Positions 1-51,918 of a DNA stretch of 64,000 nt are shown piece by piece. The position numbers were made by a program, and so were the translations under genes. Positions within the stretch are counted from its first letter, which is position 1. Each line of letters begins with the position of its first letter. This DNA is from Eledone cirrhosa (Eukaryota). The stretch spans positions 309,752,001-309,816,000 of the forward strand of contig OZ024741.1 in the NCBI GenBank assembly GCA_964016885.1, written 5' to 3'. The notes beneath the pieces are model-generated. The model was not told the origin of the DNA. It saw only the letters and a program-made list of their open reading frames with translations, and made no database searches.

Positions 1-900
1 GGACTGAGAGTGAACCTAGCTAAGACAAAAGTGTTGATGAGTAGAAATGAGGACAAAACCCTGATTCCGTCAGGGAAATGGCCATGTTCGATATGCAGAA
101 AAGGAACTGGCATAAATTCTATAAAATGCACACAATGCAGATCCTGGGTACACAAGAGATGTAGCGGGATAGCAGGCAAACTAACAGGTAGAGAGAAATA
201 TGTATGCAGTAGATGTACAGGGAAATTAGACAGTAGAAGTCGCATTGATAGACACATTTTTCAAATGCAGGAGGGCGCTATAGAAGTGGTGGATAGCTTC
301 CGGTACCTAGGAGATCAGATTAGCATGGGAGGAGGGTGTTCCGAGGCCATATTATCTAGAATAAGGACGGGTTGGAAGAAGTTTAGGGAGCTGCTTTCTC
401 TGTTGACGAAGAAGGGTTTCTCCCTGCGTACGAAAGGCCGGTTGTATGATGCCTGTGTGAGGAGCGCGATGCTGCATGGTAGTGAGACATGGGCAGCAAC
501 TGCAGAGGATATGCGACGGCTGGAGAGAAATGAGGCAAGCATGCTCCGTTGGATGTGCAGTGTAAATGTGCGTGAACGACCCAGCATAAATGTGTTGAGA
601 GAGAAACTGTCTGAGAGGGATAGAATGCAGTGTACGGGAGAGGAGACTGAGGTGGTATGGACATGTGATGCGCATGGAGGATGACCGATGGGTGAAGAAG
701 TGCCAGGAAATGCCAGTTGAAGGAAGATGTGGTAGAGGTAGACCACGAAAAACATGGGCAGAGGTGGTGAGAACAGACCTCAGATCATTGAAGCTCACGG
801 TGGAGATGACGAAGGACCGTGACGAGTGGAGAGATGCTGTGCTGAATAAGACCCGTCCCACCCTTACAAGCAGGGAAAAGCGGACGTAAAATGATGATGA

Positions 901-2275: not shown

Positions 2276-5200
2276 CGCTGTATTAGCGTTAAATTTTCCC
2301 TGCTGTATTAGCGATAAATTTTCGAGGGTTTCTCTTAGTAGCTTTTTCATGTCGTTAATATTATGATGTTCCCTGCTGTATTAGCGTTAAATTTTCCCTG
2401 CTGTATTAGCGATAAATTTTCGAGGGTTTCTCTTAGTAGCTTTTTTCATGACGTTATTATTGTTAATTTTACTGATGTAGTATTAACTTGGATATTTACC
2501 ATGCGACCCTCAGTTCCTACCCCCCCCCCCCCTCTATGCACTTCTTTAAGGCTTACTACCCTGTCTTTAACCTAATTCATTCAATCTGAAAATATTGAAG
2601 AGATAAGACACTTTGCCATTCTTCTCTGCTAAAATGTACCACTGAGCTGATTCAAATTTTCCCAGCCAGCCATCCACCTAATCTACGAAGGTATTTTAGC
2701 CTACATATTGTCGTTAATATTATGATGTTCCCTGCTGTATTAGCGTTAAATTTTCCCTGCTGTATTAGCGATAAATTTTCGAGGGTTTCTCTTAGTAGCT
2801 TTTTCATGTCGTTAATATTATGATGTTCCCTGCTGTATTAGCGTTAAATTTTCCCTGCTGTATTAGCGATAAATTTTCGAGGGTTTCTCTTAGTAGCTTT
2901 TTCATGTCGTTAATATTATGATGTTCCCTGCTGTATTAGCGTTAAATTTTCCCTGCTGTATTAGCGATAAATTTTCGAGGGTTTCTCTTAGTAGCTTTTT
3001 CATGTCGTTAATATTATGATGTTCCCTGCTGTATTAGCGTTAAATTTTCCCTGCTGTATTAGCGATAAATTTTCGAGGGTTTCTCTTAGTAGCTTTTTTC
3101 ATGACGTTATTATTGTTAATCTTACTGATGTAGTATTAACTTATTAACTTGGATATTTACCATGCGGTATTCTAATCCTATTGTATCTCTCTCAGTTATT
3201 TACCATGCGACCCTCAGTTCCTACCCCCCCCCCCCCCTCTATGCACTTCTTTAAGGCTTACTACCCTGTCTTTAACCTAATTCATTCAATCTGAAAATAT
3301 TGAAGAGATAAGACACTTTGCCATTCTTCTCTGCTAAAATGTACCACTGAGCTGATTCAAATTTTCCCAGCCAGCCATCCACCTAATCTACGAAGGTATT
3401 TTAGCCTACATATTGTCGTTAATATTATGATGTTCCCTGCTGTATTAGCGTTAAATTTTCCCTGCTGTATTAGCGATAAATTTTCGAGGGTTTCTCTTAG
3501 TAGCTTTTTCATGTCGTTAATATTATGATGTTCCCTGCTGTATTAGCGTTAAATTTTCCCTGCTGTATTAGCGATAAATTTTCGAGGGTTTCTCTTAGTA
3601 GCTTTTTCATGTCGTTAATATTATGATGTTCCCTGCTGTATTAGCGTTAAATTTTCCCTGCTGTATTAGCGATAAATTTTCGAGGGTTTCTCTTAGTAGC
3701 TTTTTCATGTCGTTAATATTATGATGTTCCCTGCTGTATTAGCGTTAAATTTTCCCTGCTGTATTAGCGATAAATTTTCGAGGGTTTCTCTTAGTAGCTT
3801 TTTCATGTCGTTAATATTATGATGTTCCCTGCTGTATTAGCGTTAAATTTTCCCTGCTGTATTAGCGATAAATTTTCGAGGGTTTCTCTTAGTAGCTTTT
3901 TCATGTCGTTAATATTATGATGTTCCCTGCTGTATTAGCGTTAAATTTTCCCTGCTGTATTAGCGATAAATTTTCGAGGGTTTCTCTTAGTAGCTTTTTT
4001 CATGACGTTATTATTGTTAATTTTACTGATGTAGTATTAACTTGGATATTTACCATGCGACCCTCAGTTCCTACCCCCCCCCCCTCTATGCACTTCTTTA
4101 AGGCTTACTACCCTGTCTTTAACCTAATTCATTCAATCTGAAAATATTGAAGAGATAAGACACTTTGCCATTCTTCTCTGCTAAAATGTACCACTGAGCT
4201 GATTCAAATTTTCCCAGCCAGCCATCCACCTAATCTACGAAGGTATTTTAGCCTACATATTGTCGTTAATATTATGATGTTCCCTGCTGTATTAGCGTTA
4301 AATTTTCCCTGCTGTATTAGCGATAAATTTTCGAGGGTTTCTCTTAGTAGCTTTTTCATGTCGTTAATATTATGATGTTCCCTGCTGTATTAGCGTTAAA
4401 TTTTCCCTGCTGTATTAGCGATAAATTTTCGAGGGTTTCTCTTAGTAGCTTTTTCATGTCGTTAATATTATGATGTTCCCTGCTGTATTAGCGTTAAATT
4501 TTCCCTGCTGTATTAGCGATAAATTTTCGAGGGTTTCTCTTAGTAGCTTTTTCATGTCGTTAATATTATGATGTTCCCTGCTGTATTAGCGTTAAATTTT
4601 CCCTGCTGTATTAGCGATAAATTTTCGAGGGTTTCTCTTAGTAGCTTTTTCATGTCGTTAATATTATGATGTTCCCTGCTGTATTAGCGTTAAATTTTCC
4701 CTGCTGTATTAGCGATAAATTTTCGAGGGTTTCTCTTAGTAGCTTTTTTCATGACGTTATTATTGTTAATTTTACTGATGTAGTATTAACTTGGATATTT
4801 ACCATGCGACCCTCAGTTCCTACCCCCCCCCCCTCTATGCACTTCTTTAAGGCTTACTACCCTGTCTTTAACCTAATTCATTCAATCTGAAAATATTGAA
4901 GAGATAAGACACTTTGCCATTCTTCTCTGCTAAAATGTACCACTGAGCTGATTCAAATTTTCCCAGCCAGCCATCCACCTAATCTACGAAGGTATTTTAG
5001 CCTACATATTGTCGTTAATATTATGATGTTCCCTGCTGTATTAGCGTTAAATTTTCCCTGCTGTATTAGCGATAAATTTTCGAGGGTTTCTCTTAGTAGC
5101 TTTTTCATGTCGTTAATATTATGATGTTCCCTGTTGTATTAGCGTTAAATTTTCCCTGCTGTATTAGCGATAAATTTTCGAGGGTTTCTCTTAGTAGCTT

Positions 5201-5670
5201 TTTCATGTCGTTAATATTATGATGTTCCCTGCTGTATTAGCGTTAAATTTTCCCTGCTGTATTAGCGATAAATTTTCGAGGGTTTCTCTTAGTAGCTTTT
5301 TCATGTCGTTAATATTATGATGTTCCCTGCTGTATTAGCGTTAAATTTTCCCTGCTGTATTAGCGATAAATTTTCGAGGGTTTCTCTTAGTAGCTTTTTC
5401 ATGTCGTTAATATTATGATGTTCCCTGCTGTATTAGCGTTAAATTTTCCCTGCTGTATTAGCGATAAATTTTCGAGGGTTTCTCTTAGTAGCTTTTTCAT
5501 GTCGTTAATATTATGATGTTCCCTGCTGTATTAGCGTTAAATTTTCCCTGCTGTATTAGCGATAAATTTTCGAGGGTTTCTCTTAGTAGCTTTTTTCATG
5601 ACGTTATTATTGTTAATTTTACTGATGTAGTATTAACTTGGATATTTACCATGCGACCCTCAGTTCCTAC
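2276..5670. repeat. Higher-order tandem array: runs of a 98-bp monomer separated by a ~260-bp spacer unit
   Basis: Monomer tgtcgttaatattatgatgttccctgctgtattagcg...agtagctttttca starts at 2709, 2807, 2905 (98-bp period). Runs of ~1.7, 4, 6, 5 and 6 monomers are separated by spacers at ~2445-2708, 3100-3413, 4000-4260 and 4750-5009, with a partial spacer at 5597-5670. Confidence 0.95.
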
Positions 5671-8600
5671 CTCACAATTTCCCTCCCCCCCACCCCCACA
5701 CACCACCATAGTCTATTCGACCAATCAAACCTAGCATGCCATTTCCACTGCTGCTGCTGCTGCTACTACCTGCCTAACTAACTCTCTCCTCCTCTGGCGC
5801 ATCCCAACACACCCTGCCATTACCCCACCACCACTGTCCTTCTAGCCCTCAATTTTCCCACCGTTAGGGATGGATGAGCTGGGAATACACGAGCAACTCT
5901 GAATCAATAGATGAAATATGAATCTGCGAGCTACCAAGCACCCACGTGAAGCGCCAACCCAGAGACCCTCCCCTACGAGTGTCGACAAATGCCCAAAACT
6001 CCGAGTTGGTACCATCAATGTAGGCTCAATGAAAGGAAGAGCAGGAGAAATCGTAGAAATGCTAGAGCGAAAGGAAGTTGATGTATGCTGTGTGCAAGAG
6101 ACTAGATGGAGAGGAGGGTCTGCTAGAGTCCTTGTAGGAAAAAGCCAGTGCTACAAATTTTTCTGGGTGGGAAATGACGATGGGATGGGTGGTGTAGGTA
6201 TACTATTAGCTGACAAGTGGGTAGATAAAGTAATCTCAGTGTACAGGGTAAATGCAAGAATCATTAAACTCAGACTAGTCCTGAATAAGACAATTACCAC
6301 AATAATATCAGCTTACGCACCCCAATCGGGGCTGCCAGACGAACTTAAGGATAGGTTTTACGAGTCCCTAATACACACTACTGCTCTAACAGACGACAAG
6401 GACTTCCTAATCATTGCAGGAGATTTTAACGGACACGTAGGTAAACACTGCGACGGCTTCAATAGAGTACATGGAGGCCATGGAGTTGGCACAAGGAATG
6501 AGGAAGGATTCAGACTTCTAGAATTCTGCGACGCCAATGACATGTCGATATGTAACACAAACTTTAAAAAACCCGACAACCACCTGATCACCTATAGATC
6601 AGGGGAGCACTCTAGTCAGTTAGATTTTATCCTCATCAGAGGACGTGACAGATGGACGGTCGTAAACACAAAAGCCTTCCCTAGTGAGGAATGTACATCC
6701 CAACATAGCTTAGTTGTCAGCGACCTTACGGTCAGAACTAGACGAGCCCTGAAACAGAGGCCAACCTGGAGAAGAAAGATCTGGAAGCTGAAAGTCCCCT
6801 CAACCAGTAACAGATTTAAAGATATTTTACTCAACGCCTACGACAGTAAAGAAGAACAGATAGAGACATTTAACGTAGAAGAGAACTGGGAGTTCCTAAA
6901 AAATAACTTACTAGAGGCGACGGATGAGGTTTGTGGCTGGAGTAAGACCTCAAGCAGGAGGAGAGTGACTTGGTGGTGGAACAATAAGGTAGATGAAGCA
7001 GTCAAGGCCAAGAGACAGGCATGGAAAGAATGGAAGAACGGGGGGAGCAGGGTACATTACATAGAGACCAAGAGGGAAGCTAGGCGACAAGTATACTTAG
7101 CTAGGAGGGAAGCAGAGGATAGAAAATTCAAGCATGTTTTACAACGTGAGGACCAGAAACAGGAGGTATTCAAGATTGCGAGGCAGTGTGTCAGAGATAG
7201 TTGTGATGTCATTGGAGAGAAGTGTATCCGGAATGATAAAGGTGAGCTTGCCCTCACAAGTGCTGAGAAGAAAGATGCATGGAAGAGTCATTATGATAGA
7301 TTACTAAATGAGGAGAATGCATGGGAAGAAGAGACCCTACCCCACGTAGACCCTATAGAGGGACCAGCAGTACAAGTCAGCGGCAGCGTAGTAAGTAAGG
7401 CAATCAGAGATATGAAGATAGGGAAGGCAACCGGTCCATCGGGTATAGCTGCCGAGATGCTGAAGGCATCTGGGTCTGTAGGTCACACTATAACCACACG
7501 TATCGTTAACCAGGTAATACTAGAGGGGGCCATACCAAAAGATTGGTGCAGTAGCATCATTGTCAACTGCTACAAAGGTAAAGGCGATGCACTAGATAGA
7601 GGAAACTATAGAGGTATAAAGTTGATGGACCAGGTCATGAAAGTAACAGAAAGAGTTATAGCACAGCTGATTAGGGACCGGGTGAATATAGACGAGATGC
7701 AATTTGGGTTTGTTCCAGGGAAAGGCACCACTGATGCGCTCTTCCTTGTGAGGCAATTACAGGAAAAGTACCTAGCTAAAAGTAAGCCACTCTACTTGGC
7801 ATTTGTCGACCTTGAGAAAGCCTTTGACAGAGTTCCACGTGCAGTAATCTGGTGGGCTCTTAGAAAACTAGGAGTAGATGAATGGCTTGTGAAAGCGGTA
7901 CAAGCCATGTATAGGGGAGCAGTCAGCAAAGTTAGGATTGGCAATGAGTATAGCGAGGAATTTAGCGTACAGGTTGGGGTCCACCAGGGCTCTGTTCTTA
8001 GCCCTCTCCTGTTCATCATAGTCCTGCAGGCAATAACGGAGGAGTTTAAGACCGGATGCCCATGGGAACTCCTGTATGCTGATGACCTCGCACTCATAGC
8101 TGAATCTATGGTAGAACTAGAGAATAAATTCCAAACCTGGAAGCAGGGACTAGAGAGAAAGGGCCTCAAAGTCAACATGACAAAGACTAAGGTCCTTATA
8201 AGTAGACGAGAAAACAGAACCCAGATCCCCTCAGGGAAATGGCCTGCTCAGTATGTAGGAAAGGTGTAGGTAGGAACTCCATTCTTTGCCCCAAATGCAA
8301 ACAATGGGTACACAAGAGATGTAGCGGGATCTCAGGAAGCTTAATTAAGAATGTAGGATTCACATGCAGCAGCTGTGCTGAAACAGCAAGCAAACAGCCA
8401 CAGGAAACAAGTACCACCAATCTCTGGGAGGGCCCTGTAGAAACAGTAGACAGCTTCTGCTACCTAGGTGACCGAATTAGCAACGGAGGTGGGTGCTCAG
8501 AAAGTACAATAACTAGGGTAAGAACGGGATGGAAGAAGTTTAGGGAACTACTACCACTGCTAGCTGCAAAAGGCTTCTCCCTCAGAATGAAAGGCAGACT

Positions 8601-9336
8601 GTATGATGCGTGTATCCGAACAGCGATGTTGCATGGTAGTGAGACCTGGGCGCTGAAGGTGGAAGACTTACGTAGATTAGAGAGAAACGAAGCCTGCATG
8701 CTCCGATGGATGTGTAACAGTAATATACGTGAACGACAAAGCATAAATGAATTGAGAGAGAGACTGAGCATAAGAGGAATCAAATGCTGCGTGCAGGAGA
8801 GGCGGTTACGCTGGTATGGACATGTGATGCGTATGAAGGATGACAGCTGCATAAAAAGGTGCAGAGCACTAGAAGTTGATGGAAACCGCGGAGTGGGGAG
8901 ACCCAAGATGACTTGGGATGAGGTGATAAAAGCCGACCTTACCCAACTACACCTCTCAAAGTCAATGACACACGACCGTGACTTCTGGCGTCACGCAGTA
9001 ATACAGGGTACCCGACCTCCCATGGGTACATGCTGAAGCATATAAACAATATGCCCCCCCCCCCCACCGCAAGGTGGTCGTGGAGGTGCCACGGCAAAAA
9101 AGCACCCAGCCCACACTGTAAAGTGGACGTGTAGGCGCCACGAAAAAGCACCCAGCACTCACTGTAAATGAGGTTGGTGTTAGGAAGGGCATCCAGCTGT
9201 AGAAATCAAGCCAGATCAGTTCCTGTATGAGCAAGGCATGGTCAGCCGACCAGACACTGCCCACAACAGGACAACCCGTCTAACCCATGCTAGCGTGGAA
9301 GAACGGACGTAAAACGGTGATGATGATGATGATGAT
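5671..9336 (+). mobile_element. Near full-length RTE-clade non-LTR retrotransposon (subfamily B)
   Basis: 5' UTR, single APE-RT ORF, ~300-bp 3' UTR ending ...ggacgtaaaacggtgatgatgatgat, followed by the TA/CA microsatellite. Confidence 0.96.
5918..9036 (+). CDS. RTE ORF: AP endonuclease + reverse transcriptase + PHD finger (~1039 aa after correcting one 1-nt deletion at 8244/8245)
   Basis: APE motifs TINVGSM, CVQETRW, SAYAPQ, GDFNGHVG, LDFIL, SQH. RT motifs NYRGIKL, QFGF, FVDLEKAFDRV, GVHQGSVLSPLLF, LLYADDL. ORFs 5918-8269 and 8239-9036 join if an A is restored in tggcc^tgctc (paralogous copies read tggccatg). Confidence 0.93.
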
Positions 9337-9876: not shown

Positions 9877-10590
9877 GCAGGCGAGTTTATGCCTACTCCT
9901 TCCTACACACTGAGCATGGCCATTTCCCAGATGGGACCTGTGCCCTATTTTTCTTCCTACAAACTAGAACTTTAGTCTTAGACAAGTTAACTTTAAGGCC
10001 TTTTGATTCTAAGCCATGCTTCCATGTTTGGAATTTCTTCTCCAGTTCGGCCATTGATTCAGCTATGAGCGTTAGATCATCTGCATATAGGAGTTCCCAT
10101 GGGCAGCCGGTCTTGAACTCCTCTGTTATAGCCTGAAGGACAATAATAAATAGTAGGGGGCTAAGGACGGAGCCCTGATGAACACCAACTTTTACGCTAA
10201 ACTCTTCACTATATTCGTTGTTAATTCTAAACTTGCTGACTGTTTCTTTATACATGGCTTGTATAGCTCTCACAAGCCATTCATCAACACCTAGTTTTCT
10301 AAGAGCCCACCAGATAATGGAACAATGGACTCTGTCGAAGGCTTTCTCCAAGTCAACAAAAGCTAAGTATAGGGGTTTACTTTCAGCTAGGTACTTCTCC
10401 TGTAGTTGTTGTACAATGTTGTACTTTTACCTGACATAAACCCGAACTGCATTTCGTCTAGATCAATTCGCTCTCTAATTAGTTGCGCTATTACTTTTTC
10501 TGTGACCTTCATGACCTGGTCGATTAATTTAATGCCTCTATAGTTTCCCCTATCTAGGGCATCACCTTTACCCTTGTAGCAGTTAATGAT
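9877..10590 (-). mobile_element. Internal RTE RT fragment, inverted relative to the full-length copy
   Basis: IINCYKGKGDALDRGNYRGIKL...QFGF; EKAFDRV...GVHQGSVLSPLLF...LLYADDL...GKWPCSVCRK; small deletion near 10420; both ends abut (TA)n. Confidence 0.93.
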
Positions 10591-17141: not shown

Positions 17142-17237
17142 GCTTTGCTATGTCTTCCCAACTCAATAAGGGGTGAGTACCGCCACCTGGTATCAGCTCC
17201 ACAACTCTTGTTGGAGCAGCTATTAATGAACATGAAG
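17142..17237 (+). CDS. ZFYVE26: ZFYVE26 exon (ALLCLPNSIRGEYRHLVSAPQLLLEQLLMNMK)
   Basis: Contains LEQLLMNMK, recalled as conserved in spastizin; ttctag / AAG|gtaagc; 96 nt. Confidence 0.92.
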
Positions 17238-17321
17238 GTAAGCTTTCTGGTTCTTCCATTTATATTTGTTGCTTTTCCTCTTTGTATTTTCTATAAAATG
17301 TTTTTACCAGATCATCATCAT

Positions 17322-40013: not shown

Positions 40014-41985
40014 TAATGGGCATGGTCATAGGAACAGGAAGGACAACCGTACGAACACGCATGCACAGAAACCCGGTCACCTCACACAGGCAATACTAGA
40101 ATGCGTGCGAGAGGTGTAAGGGAGATAACTGCGAAAGTCCGAAATTTTTTAGTTGAAAATAAAATTAGAAGGAATCAGCTTTGTAGTTATGCAATAGGTG
40201 TTTGGCGACGTGTGAAAAATTCATTTCTCGTGTTTAGGGAATCTCTATTGTGTAATCTCTTTAGAATAGTTATTCGTTCGTCAATACGTAAGTCACACGT
40301 CGGATTTCCCCTTGCGTATGGCTTGGACTTAGTGATGGCTTTCCATTGAATGGAGTAGTCTATACTTGAGTCCTTGAGGGACCATACGTGGCTCGCGAGT
40401 TTCGTGGATGAATATCTCTCCGGGTACCTGAAGGTAGACTGGTGGTTCAGGAAACGTTCCTTAAATCGGCACTCCGCCATGCCCACATAGGATTTGACCT
40501 CCTGTGGTCCGTTTGGTCGGATGGAAGTGACCACAGCTTCATAAATTACAGCTGGTGTGTGGCATTGCTGTTGAAGGGAGCAAGCTTCGGGCTTACGGCA
40601 AGAGAACTCTGGTGGGGTGTTGCTCCTAGGGCTGTTGGTGATGTGGGCTTTCATGTTCTTAGCGCAGGAGTATCCTAGTTTAACTTTGTGTCGGTTAAAG
40701 ATGGAGCGGTATTTATGACTATAGGAAAGTGTCTATCTAAGAGGGCTAGAAATTTTTTTCTACATTGGTTTTAACGTTGAGTGAGAAGGGAGGAGAGAAC
40801 CAGATAACTTGTCTATTGTTGGGCTTTCTTTTCTTATTGCTGTTGTTGATAGTGGGAGAGTAAGTGATAGGTTGTGAGAAGCCGCTGTTAGCCAAACACC
40901 GTGTTATAGTAGGGTGCCGCCCTGTCAAAGATAGCCTTATTAGAGGAGAGGTTTGAGATTCTAGTACTGATATTCTTAACGAAGTTTCTAAAAACAGTGG
41001 GAGAGTGGCATGAGTCCTTGTGAATGTAATTGAGTTTCTCGTTTAGCTTATGGAAGGGTCTGTGGGTGTGTGTGCGAAGGTCTAAATTAATGCCTAAGAA
41101 ATCTATGCTAGAGAGGTTGCTGGCTACTGTTATTCTAAGTTCTAACTCATTGAAGGTAGAAGCTAAGTCTTTTTTAAACCGGTCGAGATCGTGACCCCTT
41201 TTATGGCTCAATAAAGTCAGTCCATCGTCGCGGTATATTCCCGTGTGGAAGTCGGGAATCTAACACGTAATATGTCTAAGATAAATAGGCCAACCAAGTC
41301 ACATACGTCAGCACTGTCAAACGATCCCATGGAGACGTCAAATAGGTCTGAAGTTGTAGACTTCTTTGCCCAGGCTACTCCGTCGTTCAAGAGGGGGGTT
41401 TTCCGGCAGTGAGCGATGATTTCCCTGTCTAAACCATCGACGATGGTATAAGTGGTAGCGAAGTCCAACGCTTTGTTTAACAGGGTCTCTGAGATCGACG
41501 GGTAAAAATCAACAATGTCAAACTGTGTGAACTTCGCTTTTTTGGATTTTAAGGAGTTAAACCACTTAATTACGGAGTCGGTGTTCTCCCACTGGGGCAG
41601 GTTGGACTTGGTCCTAATGGTCTTAACTATGTTTCTAAGTATGGCCTTACTGACTAGTCCCATATCTGTGTGTGCCGGGTTTATTAGTCTACATGTGGGG
41701 TTAGAAGTAAAATCTATTCTAAGGAGATTACGCAATAGTAATTGCCTAAACACGAGAAATGAATTTTTCACACATTGTCCACACGTCGCCAAACACCTAT
41801 TGCATAACTACAAAGCACCGGACTGATTCCTTGTAATTTTATTTTCAACTAAAAATTTTCGGACTTTCGCAGTTATCTCCCTTACACCTCGCACGCATTC
41901 TAGTATTTCCTGTGTGAGGTGACCGGGTTTCTGCGCATGCACGTTCGTACGGTTGTCCTTCCTGTTCCTATAACCACGCCCATTA

Positions 41986-48079: not shown

Positions 48080-48600
48080 TCATCATCATCATCATCGTTT
48101 AACGTCCATCTTCCACGCTAGCATGGGTTTGGACGGGAATTTTCCCACTTGAGGCAAGATTGGTTGTCTTGCTCGTATAGGACTGTCTGGATGCCCTTCC
48201 TAACACCAACCACGTTTACAGTGGGGACTGGGAGGTTTTTATCGTGTTACCTACACGGCCACATTACAGCGTGGACTGTGTGTTTTTTTGTCGTGACACC
48301 TACACAGAGCACCCTCCACCACTGCTGATTTTGTCACCCAGGTAACGGAAGGTGTCCACTATTTCTATAGAACCATCTGTGCAATGGAATGGGCTAGTAT
48401 TCTGTGGGCACTTGCTGCTACTTATTGCACCGGAGCACTGGCCACATATAAAATCTATATTCTTAGTTAGCTTACCTGTGATCCCACTACATCTTTTATG
48501 CACCCATACTTTGCATTTGGGACATAAAATGAAGTTTCTGCCTACTCCTTTCCTACACACTGAGCATGGCCATTTCCCAGATGGGACCAGTGCCCTATTT
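48080..48600 (-). mobile_element. RTE fragment: PHD region joined directly to subfamily C tail (internal deletion)
   Basis: CRKGVGRNFILCPKCKVWVHKRCSG...FICGQC...VDTFRYLG, then 3' UTR. Confidence 0.85.
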
Positions 48601-50729: not shown

Positions 50730-51918
50730 CATCATCATCATTTTACGTCCGCTTTTCCCTGCTTGCAAGGATGGGACAGTTCCTATTCAGCACAGCATCT
50801 CTCCATTTGTCACGGTCCTTTGTTATCTCTTCCGTGAGCTTCAGCGATCTGAGGTCAGCTCTCACCACCTCTGCCCATGATTTTCGTGGTCTTCCTTTAC
50901 TGCATCTTCCTTCCACTGGAATTTCTTGGCACTTCTTTACCCAGCAGTCATCCTCCATGCGTATCACATGTCCATACCAACGCAGTCTTCTCTCCCGCAC
51001 ACTACAGCTTATCCCTCTTATACACGGTTTCTCTCTCAACTCATCTATGCTTGGTTGTTCACACACATTGACATTGCACATCCAATCCTTCATTTCTCTC
51101 CACTCGTCGCATATCATCCGCTGTTGCTACGCATGTCTCACTACCATGCAGCATCATGCATCTCACACAGGCATCATATAACCAGCCTTTTGTTTGTAGG
51201 GAGAAACCCTTCTTTGTCAACAGAAGCAGCAGCTCCCTAAACTTCTTCCAACCTGTCCTTATTCTAGATACTATGGCCTCGGAGCACTCTCCTCCCTTGC
51301 TAATCACCTAGGTATCGGAAGCTATCAACCATGTCTATAGATCCTACCTGCATTTGAAAAATGTGTCTATCACTGCGAATTCTACTGTCAAATTTCCCTG
51401 AACATCTACTGCATATGTAGTTTTCCCTACCTGTTAGTTTACCTGCTATCCCACTACATCTCTTGTGTACCCAAGATCTGCATTATGTATATTCTATAGA
51501 ATTTATGCCAACTCCTTTTCTACATATTGAACATGGCCATTTCCCTGACGGAATCAGGGTTTTGTCCTCTTTTCTACTTATCAACACTTTAGTCTTAGCT
51601 AGGTTCACTCTCAGTCCTCTTGATTCCAACTGCTGTTTCCATAGTCAAAATTTATTCTCTACCTCCTCTACTGATTCTGTTATAAGTGCCAGATCGTCAG
51701 CATAGAGAAGTTCCCATGGGCAGCCTGTTTTAAACTCCTCTGTTATGACTTGGAGGACTATAATGAACAAGAGTGGGCTGAGGACTGAAGCCTGATGTAC
51801 TCCTACTTGTATCTGGAATTCCTCACTAAACTCCATTCCTACTCACACTTTACTGACAGCACCTCTGTACATAGCTTGTAGTCTTCACAATCCATTCCTC
51901 AACACCTAGTTTCCTTAG
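50730..51918 (-). mobile_element. RTE subfamily A, 5'-truncated and degenerate
   Basis: GVHQASVLSPLLF, LLYADDL, PHD region, RLRWYGHV, ...REKRT* + (atg)n; closely matches 1-905. Confidence 0.92.

Follow-up and report, generated by a model that had tools for sequence, protein, structure and literature searches.

PHD domains of CR1/L2 LINEs were reportedly described by Kapitonov and Jurka in 2003. These domains are also encoded by non-LTR elements, but according to Metcalfe and Casane (2014, PMC4120745) they are found within ORF1 or ahead of the endonuclease, whereas the finger described here interrupts the polymerase; in the same source the structure of ORF2 is called highly constrained. The chromodomains of chromoviruses and CopiaMBD (de Mendoza et al. 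2019, PMC6673714) are other cases of a retrotransposon chromatin reader that has been proposed or shown to guide insertion. Unlike the present element, these are LTR elements with integrases, in which the reader has another fold and lies outside the RT. That paper (PMC6673714) mentions a role for PHD fingers of retrotransposons only as a possibility. The octopus element RTE-2_OV (Petrosino et al. 2022, PMC9115989) is, as here, a single-ORF RTE with a zinc finger, but that finger is of the C2H2 type and is located at a terminus of a 1109-aa ORF, and is not a PHD inside the RT.

The same finger in the same place was seen by eye in supplement file 2 of Tay et al. (2010, PMC2887409), in BfRTE-a02 of Branchiostoma floridae and NvRTE-a01 of Nematostella vectensis. 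In the main text of that paper the words 'zinc', 'cysteine' and 'PHD' are absent, and the insert is unremarked there. The architecture of RT plus PHD is already present in databases as automatic Pfam labels. Full-text searches, judged by titles and abstracts and covering sources outside subscription journals, Repbase Reports and Dfam, gave no description of an RTE whose reverse transcriptase contains a PHD, and term look-ups in the available text of PMC9115989, PMC3849965, PMC11203168, PMC5203782, PMC4120745, PMC6673714 and PMC6338049 did not find the arrangement. Published RTE sequences contain the finger unremarked, and the arrangement itself was not found described in the literature searched.

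In the current study, a stretch of 64,000 nucleotides of the Eledone cirrhosa genome (contig OZ024741.1, positions 309,752,001 to 309,816,000), referred to below as the window, was analyzed. The features discussed are the following, with their positions in the window.

85..216, forward strand: second-subfamily finger, reading in frame with the RT, 8/8 ligands
~2277-9335, forward strand: whole LINE, a single long element
2277..5914, forward strand: 5' untranslated region, 98-bp tandem monomer blocks with a ~250-bp spacer between them, shared with intact copies
5915..9036, forward strand: single EN-RT frame, which in intact copies spans 1040 codons from stop to stop and is broken here by a missing base at about 8245
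6011..6715, forward strand: APE-type endonuclease domain (Pfam PF03372 and PF14529)
7586..8191, forward strand: RT core to motif 6 (YADD; KTK at 8183-8191; Pfam PF00078)
8192..8454, forward strand: loop between motifs 6 and 7, ~88 codons compared with ~25 in finger-less relatives
8245..8376, forward strand: predicted PHD finger (C4HC3), Pygopus-like
8455..9036, forward strand: RT motif 7 (FCYLG), thumb and C-terminal helices
9037..9335, forward strand: ~280-bp 3' UTR and (GAT)n tail, then AT/AC microsatellite
9899..10000, reverse strand: copy ending past the second Cys of the finger
48435..48566, reverse strand: finger of a diverged 5'-truncated copy, 8/8 ligands
51303..51617, reverse strand: decayed copy, third Cys gone and a stop within the finger

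The RTE clade is defined by one ORF with an APE endonuclease and an RT, and by the lack of an ORF1. The element in the window fits these traits, having a single APE-endonuclease/RT ORF without ORF1, a short-repeat 3' tail and 5' truncation; its likeness to BfRTE-a02 and NvRTE-a01 was read by eye, and the RT tree described below contains no named reference. A (GAT)n tail was found at 50/50 loci examined (two of them duplicates), and truncated 5' ends were present among the copies of the family. The 5' boundary at 2277 is a by-eye reading. Between 2277 and 5611, several blocks of the 98-bp monomer and the ~250-bp spacer add up to about 3.3 kb, and the number of monomers seems to differ from copy to copy. 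The promoters of mouse L1 are likewise monomeric. Elsewhere in the window (40187-41807, reverse strand), broken frames resemble a Penelope-type element with RT and GIY-YIG-like motifs by eye, with no Pfam match at E 0.01.

Compared with the intact copy L067, the window copy is one base short at about 8245, so that its ORF reads as two frames, 5915-8269 and 8206-9036. The finger was in frame in 20/20 fetched copies, which had been chosen for a 1040-codon frame and showed 99.5–99.9% DNA identity to the window copy. The 150 candidates that were scored, out of 82,157 in a genome search, were all 100% identical over 132 residues, indicating that the family is very young. The second subfamily (window 1-684) has 66–80% protein identity to the main family, depending on the domain, and also contains long open frames. 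Clustering of the 150 identical-protein copies was observed on contig C1 (dispersion 2.3–3.8, 0/5000 uniform draws), but this is not counted as evidence, because the list was the search's own pick and had no control family.

The motif CSVC-x10-CPKC-x4-HKRC-x14-CSSC has the C4HC3 arrangement. It matched the PHD model of Pfam (PF00628) with 28.1 bits (E 2.1e-6, gathering cut-off 24) and with 27.2 bits in another run, and the PHD ligand spacing was reproduced in 0/200,000 shuffles of the 84-aa spacer. Readings of the finger as C1, RING or double zinc ribbon were rejected, all of them being under the cut-off and weaker than PHD. The predicted model of the finger had a pLDDT of 76 alone and 85–91 within the full protein, and the full-length model (pLDDT 88) matched L1 ORF2p and R2. 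In a Foldseek search and a second examination of its rows with VIA, the top rows for the finger model were the PHDs of Pygo1 and Pygo2, followed by BPTF and TAF3. The best fold match had an E of 6.5e-3, a Z of 7.1 (tied with its neighbours) and an rmsd of 2.1 over 54 aligned residues. None of the fold-search E values fell below 0.001, which is common for a model of 61 residues. In the top Atlas cluster (score 0.95), 69% of the members were PHD and 50% PHD_Pygo. The best sequence match was also to Pygo2 (E 2.6e-5).

The original prediction of a C4HC3 PHD finger is borne out, since the spacing, a Pfam score above cut-off and the predicted PHD fold all agree. Its one-frame string WPCSVC is broken in the window copy by the missing base. 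The claim that the ligands are kept in diverged window copies held for the copies at 85-216 and 48435-48566, with all eight ligands in each, and the two copies described as partial or degenerate are indeed so, one stopping past the second Cys (9899-10000) and the other having a stop and no third Cys (51303-51617). A separate observation concerns a young CR1-type LINE at two other loci (L257, 2270-3265; L256, 2454-3026), with a 945-aa second frame and an ATT tail, whose upstream frame is PHD-like with the His replaced by Cys. This all-Cys pattern, read by eye, was rejected as a second PHD family, as it had no Pfam PHD match.

The earlier placement of the finger, between the end of the RT and the thumb, has to be corrected. 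By established RT nomenclature we take FCYLG to be RT motif 7, and the finger thus lies inside the RT, within the palm, between motifs 6 and 7. The Pfam RT model reaches 205 of 205 in the finger-less protein P0247, and ends at 193 in the finger-bearing protein. Loop length was compared in 150 proteins (148 representatives and two repeats of earlier matches), of which 108 were parsed and 42 unparsed. A short KTK-to-FxYLG loop, mostly of 24–29 residues, was found in 87/108, many of these being near-copies of one catfish family. The other 21/108 had a long loop of 82–110 residues and all of them contained the finger, which was recognized by the strict pattern in 15 and, where the His-to-Cys gap is longer, by eye in six. 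The view that the two flanking motifs are normally close together in RTEs is in agreement with these data (a loop of ~25 residues in finger-less relatives versus ~88 here). In one protein, P0287, the finger is partially deleted.

In R2 the same loop between motifs 6 and 7 is termed 6a (residues 672-677); it contacts two target bases, and nicking is blocked when it is deleted (Wilkinson et al. 2023, PMC10499050). The palm insertion of L1 ORF2p is also named 6a (PMC10830420). Alignments of the present protein to R2Bm (8gh6) end at R2 residue 666-669, directly before the insert, and no sequence or fold homology of the insert to the 6a of R2 was found in them. According to the same account of R2 (PMC10499050), its 6a is a six-residue base-reading loop, whereas the finger-RTE has a folded zinc finger of ~60 residues, is APE-type and has no fixed target. 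From its place in the loop corresponding to the 6a of R2, we infer that the finger probably faces the target DNA.

The eight zinc ligands were invariant in 120/120 homologs of about 50% identity, a set which favours finger-bearing proteins as it was ranked on a region including the finger. Mean column identity was 0.75 in the first half of the finger and 0.54 in the second half, compared with 0.77 in the RT core and 0.40–0.43 in the linkers. Between the two subfamilies dS was saturated, and hence only proportions (pN/pS) were used; these were 0.33 in the finger as a whole and 0.22 in its first half; the RT core had a value of 0.12 and the linker after the finger one of 0.79. The invariant ligands, and the low pN/pS of the first half compared with the linker, support the earlier suggestion of purifying selection on the finger. 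Named holders of the finger are Hydractinia, Ostrea, Octopus, amphioxus, Nematostella and a record labelled as nematode.

An RT tree was built without the insert from 83 rows (45 with and 38 without the finger) and rooted at the midpoint; duplicates and unparsed rows were dropped, and every fourth of the 120 close homologs was offered. All finger-bearing rows fell on a single branch (100/87) that also included two nested rows without the finger, and the finger label needed 2 changes compared with 27.6 for shuffles. In the simplest reading of this midpoint-rooted tree, the finger would have been gained once and lost once. The two nested finger-less relatives, P0247 and P0286, represent a natural loss. 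P0247 has an intact-looking frame of 987 aa and no finger, indicating that an RT of this type can do without the finger. Most RTE relatives lack the finger. Judged from these sequence comparisons, the finger is an old and conserved inserted domain by which a sub-lineage of RTE-type LINEs is defined.

The PHD of Pygopus (PDB 2vpg, 4up0; Fiedler et al. 2008, PMC2726290) was the best match in both sequence and fold. As described for Pygo1 in that paper, the H3K4me2 cage is formed by W366, Y341 and D352 on a base of V350 and A356, while I357 and E360 help to hold T3 and A1, E360 being needed for binding; the exchanges W366E, V350E and A356E abolish binding or nearly so. When the pocket positions were mapped through the sequence alignment of the finger with Pygo2, the 24 fingers parsed among the 148 distant representatives had W in 24/24, V in 24/24, S (in place of A) in 23/24, I or V in 24/24 and an aromatic residue at the place of Y341 in 21/24. 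Among the closer homologs (217 parsed of 240), W was found in 215/217 and V in 194/217, and the aromatic residue, W, S/A and I/V occurred together in 180/217.

The RTE finger thus keeps the Y/W-P-C start and the V, A/S, I and W pocket residues of the Pygopus PHD. Unlike it, the finger lacks the acidic loop residues, D352 and E360, is positively charged and has a shorter second loop. No acidic counterpart of D352 was found in the RTE finger, and the place of E360 was D or E in only 6/120 homologs. A chromatin-reading module had been proposed, and of its methyl-lysine pocket the aromatic and hydrophobic face is conserved, while the Pygopus acids D352 and E360 are absent. The finger may be likened in its working to a Pygo-type H3K4me reader, but on its sequence it is not counted as one.

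Junctions running into AT repeats accounted for 25/49 to 27/48 of those of the main finger family, compared with 7–8% of random positions. In the second finger family the count was 11/26, with no 3' end located in 3 further cases. A finger-less BovB-like RTE of the same genome had 11/26 such junctions (4 without a found 3' end), and CR1 had 1/27 (3 without a found 3' end). AT repeats were also present on the 5' side in 9/10 truncated AT-junction copies. Targeting of (AT)n was therefore rejected as the function of the finger, as the finger-less RTE behaves likewise, and the bias, being common to the finger-less RTE and absent from CR1, is considered an RTE trait. Tail-linked site preference is known in RTEs (PMC6007223). 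A search for target site duplications gave matches of at least 8 bases at 2/19 non-AT junctions, both in satellite, many full-length copies having their true 5' ends outside the locus examined.

Other features of the flanks were also observed. The 3' junctions of six loci (L039, L063, L073, L077, L078 and L079) run into one short-unit satellite, which was thus found at 6/49 junctions versus 0.09% of random background, and several of these loci are within the first 9 Mb of contig C1. Copies inserted into or beside copies of the same family were seen at L037, L072, L078 and L050-L051, and finger-RTE DNA made up 16–17% of finger-RTE flanks compared with 7.5% of random stretches.

A CpG o/e below 0.5 in the 8-kb flanks was found in 11/20 and 11/19 cases for the two finger families, the flanks of the main family being sampled from one contig, in 3/20 for the finger-less RTE, in 12/18 for CR1 and in 6/20 random stretches. 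The pooled value for the finger-RTE flanks (22/39) differed from that of the finger-less RTE (Fisher p 0.003, uncorrected), but not significantly from the random background (Fisher p 0.10, rank test p 0.07, both uncorrected). The finger-less control is older, with a pairwise identity of 93.8% versus 98.8–99.7% in the finger families, and selection after insertion can thus explain its CpG difference. The shift towards CpG-poor flanks is a weak signal for the finger because of this older control and the sampling from one contig, and because the finger-less young CR1 is as CpG-poor. In CpG-poor gene bodies, H3K4me3 is not expected. In octopus, CpG methylation is described as marking the bodies of broadly expressed genes (PMC9476566), and the reading of CpG-poor DNA as methylated gene body rests on this source.

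The window itself is CpG-poor, with a ZFYVE26-like exon downstream of the element. This exon (17142-17243, forward strand) matches residues 1660-1691 of human ZFYVE26 (spastizin) with an E of 1e-4, and further likely exons begin at about 11790. From these matches, the LINE copies likely lie in introns of a ZFYVE26-like gene.

Taken with the position of the insert, the conserved pocket suggests that the finger may tether the enzyme to target chromatin at insertion, by means of a methyl-lysine pocket and a basic surface. This is a tentative reading drawn from sequence and analogy, for which our confidence stops a little short of even. In such a mechanism, the motif 6-7 loop with its finger would, like the 6a of R2, face the target duplex on the upstream side of the nick, and the pocket would bind a methylated histone lysine, of the H3K4me2/3 type if the likeness to Pygo holds. 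In a pocket without an acid, nothing would favour the lower methyl states. Basic residues of the finger would bind nucleosomal DNA, resulting in a two-point binding that could bias insertion toward active chromatin on a regional scale, while the local (AT)n site would be chosen by the endonuclease and the GAT tail and not by the finger. A PHD module that binds H3 and DNA together is described for PZP (PMC10124903). Combined reading of methyl-lysine and DNA is ranked above a purely nucleic-acid function and above a non-histone partner because the pocket is conserved.

A rather unlikely alternative is that the finger acts as a nucleic-acid clamp and not as a histone reader, its basic surface holding either the DNA target or the RNA template close to the primer grip. 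The net charge of the finger is positive in 121/121 homologs (median +7) and no acidic residue is present within the first 32 positions in 94/121, which would suit this role, as would the DNA binding of 6a at the same place in R2 (PMC10499050). Canonical PHD readers are acidic, and the basic PHD of VIN3 is described as binding DNA and RNA weakly and not H3 (PMC9640981). A clamp leaves unexplained why, among the distant members, the pocket residues (W, V, S, I and the aromatic) vary as little as the zinc ligands do, and the (AT)n bias is independent of the finger (27/48 and 11/26 with it, versus 11/26 without).

It is more unlikely still that the pocket binds a non-histone partner, which might be a cofactor supplied by the host or a stretch of protein from either the same or a second ORF, and thereby controls the ribonucleoprotein or nuclear entry. 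A conserved, acid-free pocket would fit a ligand other than the H3 tail, PHD fingers with targets other than H3K4 exist (PMC10124903), and the element has no ORF1; against this, the place of the loop in R2 points to target DNA. That the finger is a passenger, tolerated by a permissive loop and irrelevant to transposition, is very improbable, for although the nested pair of finger-less relatives and the partial deletion in P0287 would be compatible with it, the invariance of the ligands (120/120), a first half nearly as conserved as the RT core (0.75 versus 0.77, linkers 0.40–0.43) and the retention of the finger from cnidarians to amphioxus largely refute it.

Returning to the tethering of the enzyme to chromatin, a wider reading, possible though on balance doubtful, is that an old, pan-animal lineage of RTEs acquired a Pygopus-like histone reader in the target-facing loop of its polymerase, which would read methyl-lysine on the target nucleosome. 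The young family with its many intact copies, the finger-less sister elements as controls and the nameable pocket residues make chromatin choice by a LINE directly testable. Relatives of the finger family occupy about 6.5% of the 200 kb of E. cirrhosa DNA sampled in random stretches, so any targeting would shape this genome. The finding also suggests that the 6a loop of the RT tolerates a whole domain, which matters for the retargeting of LINE-based gene-insertion tools. If the wider reading is true, it would be natural proof that this loop accepts a folded targeting domain, and the catalytic protein of a LINE would itself choose chromatin, making this lineage the non-LTR counterpart of the chromoviruses.
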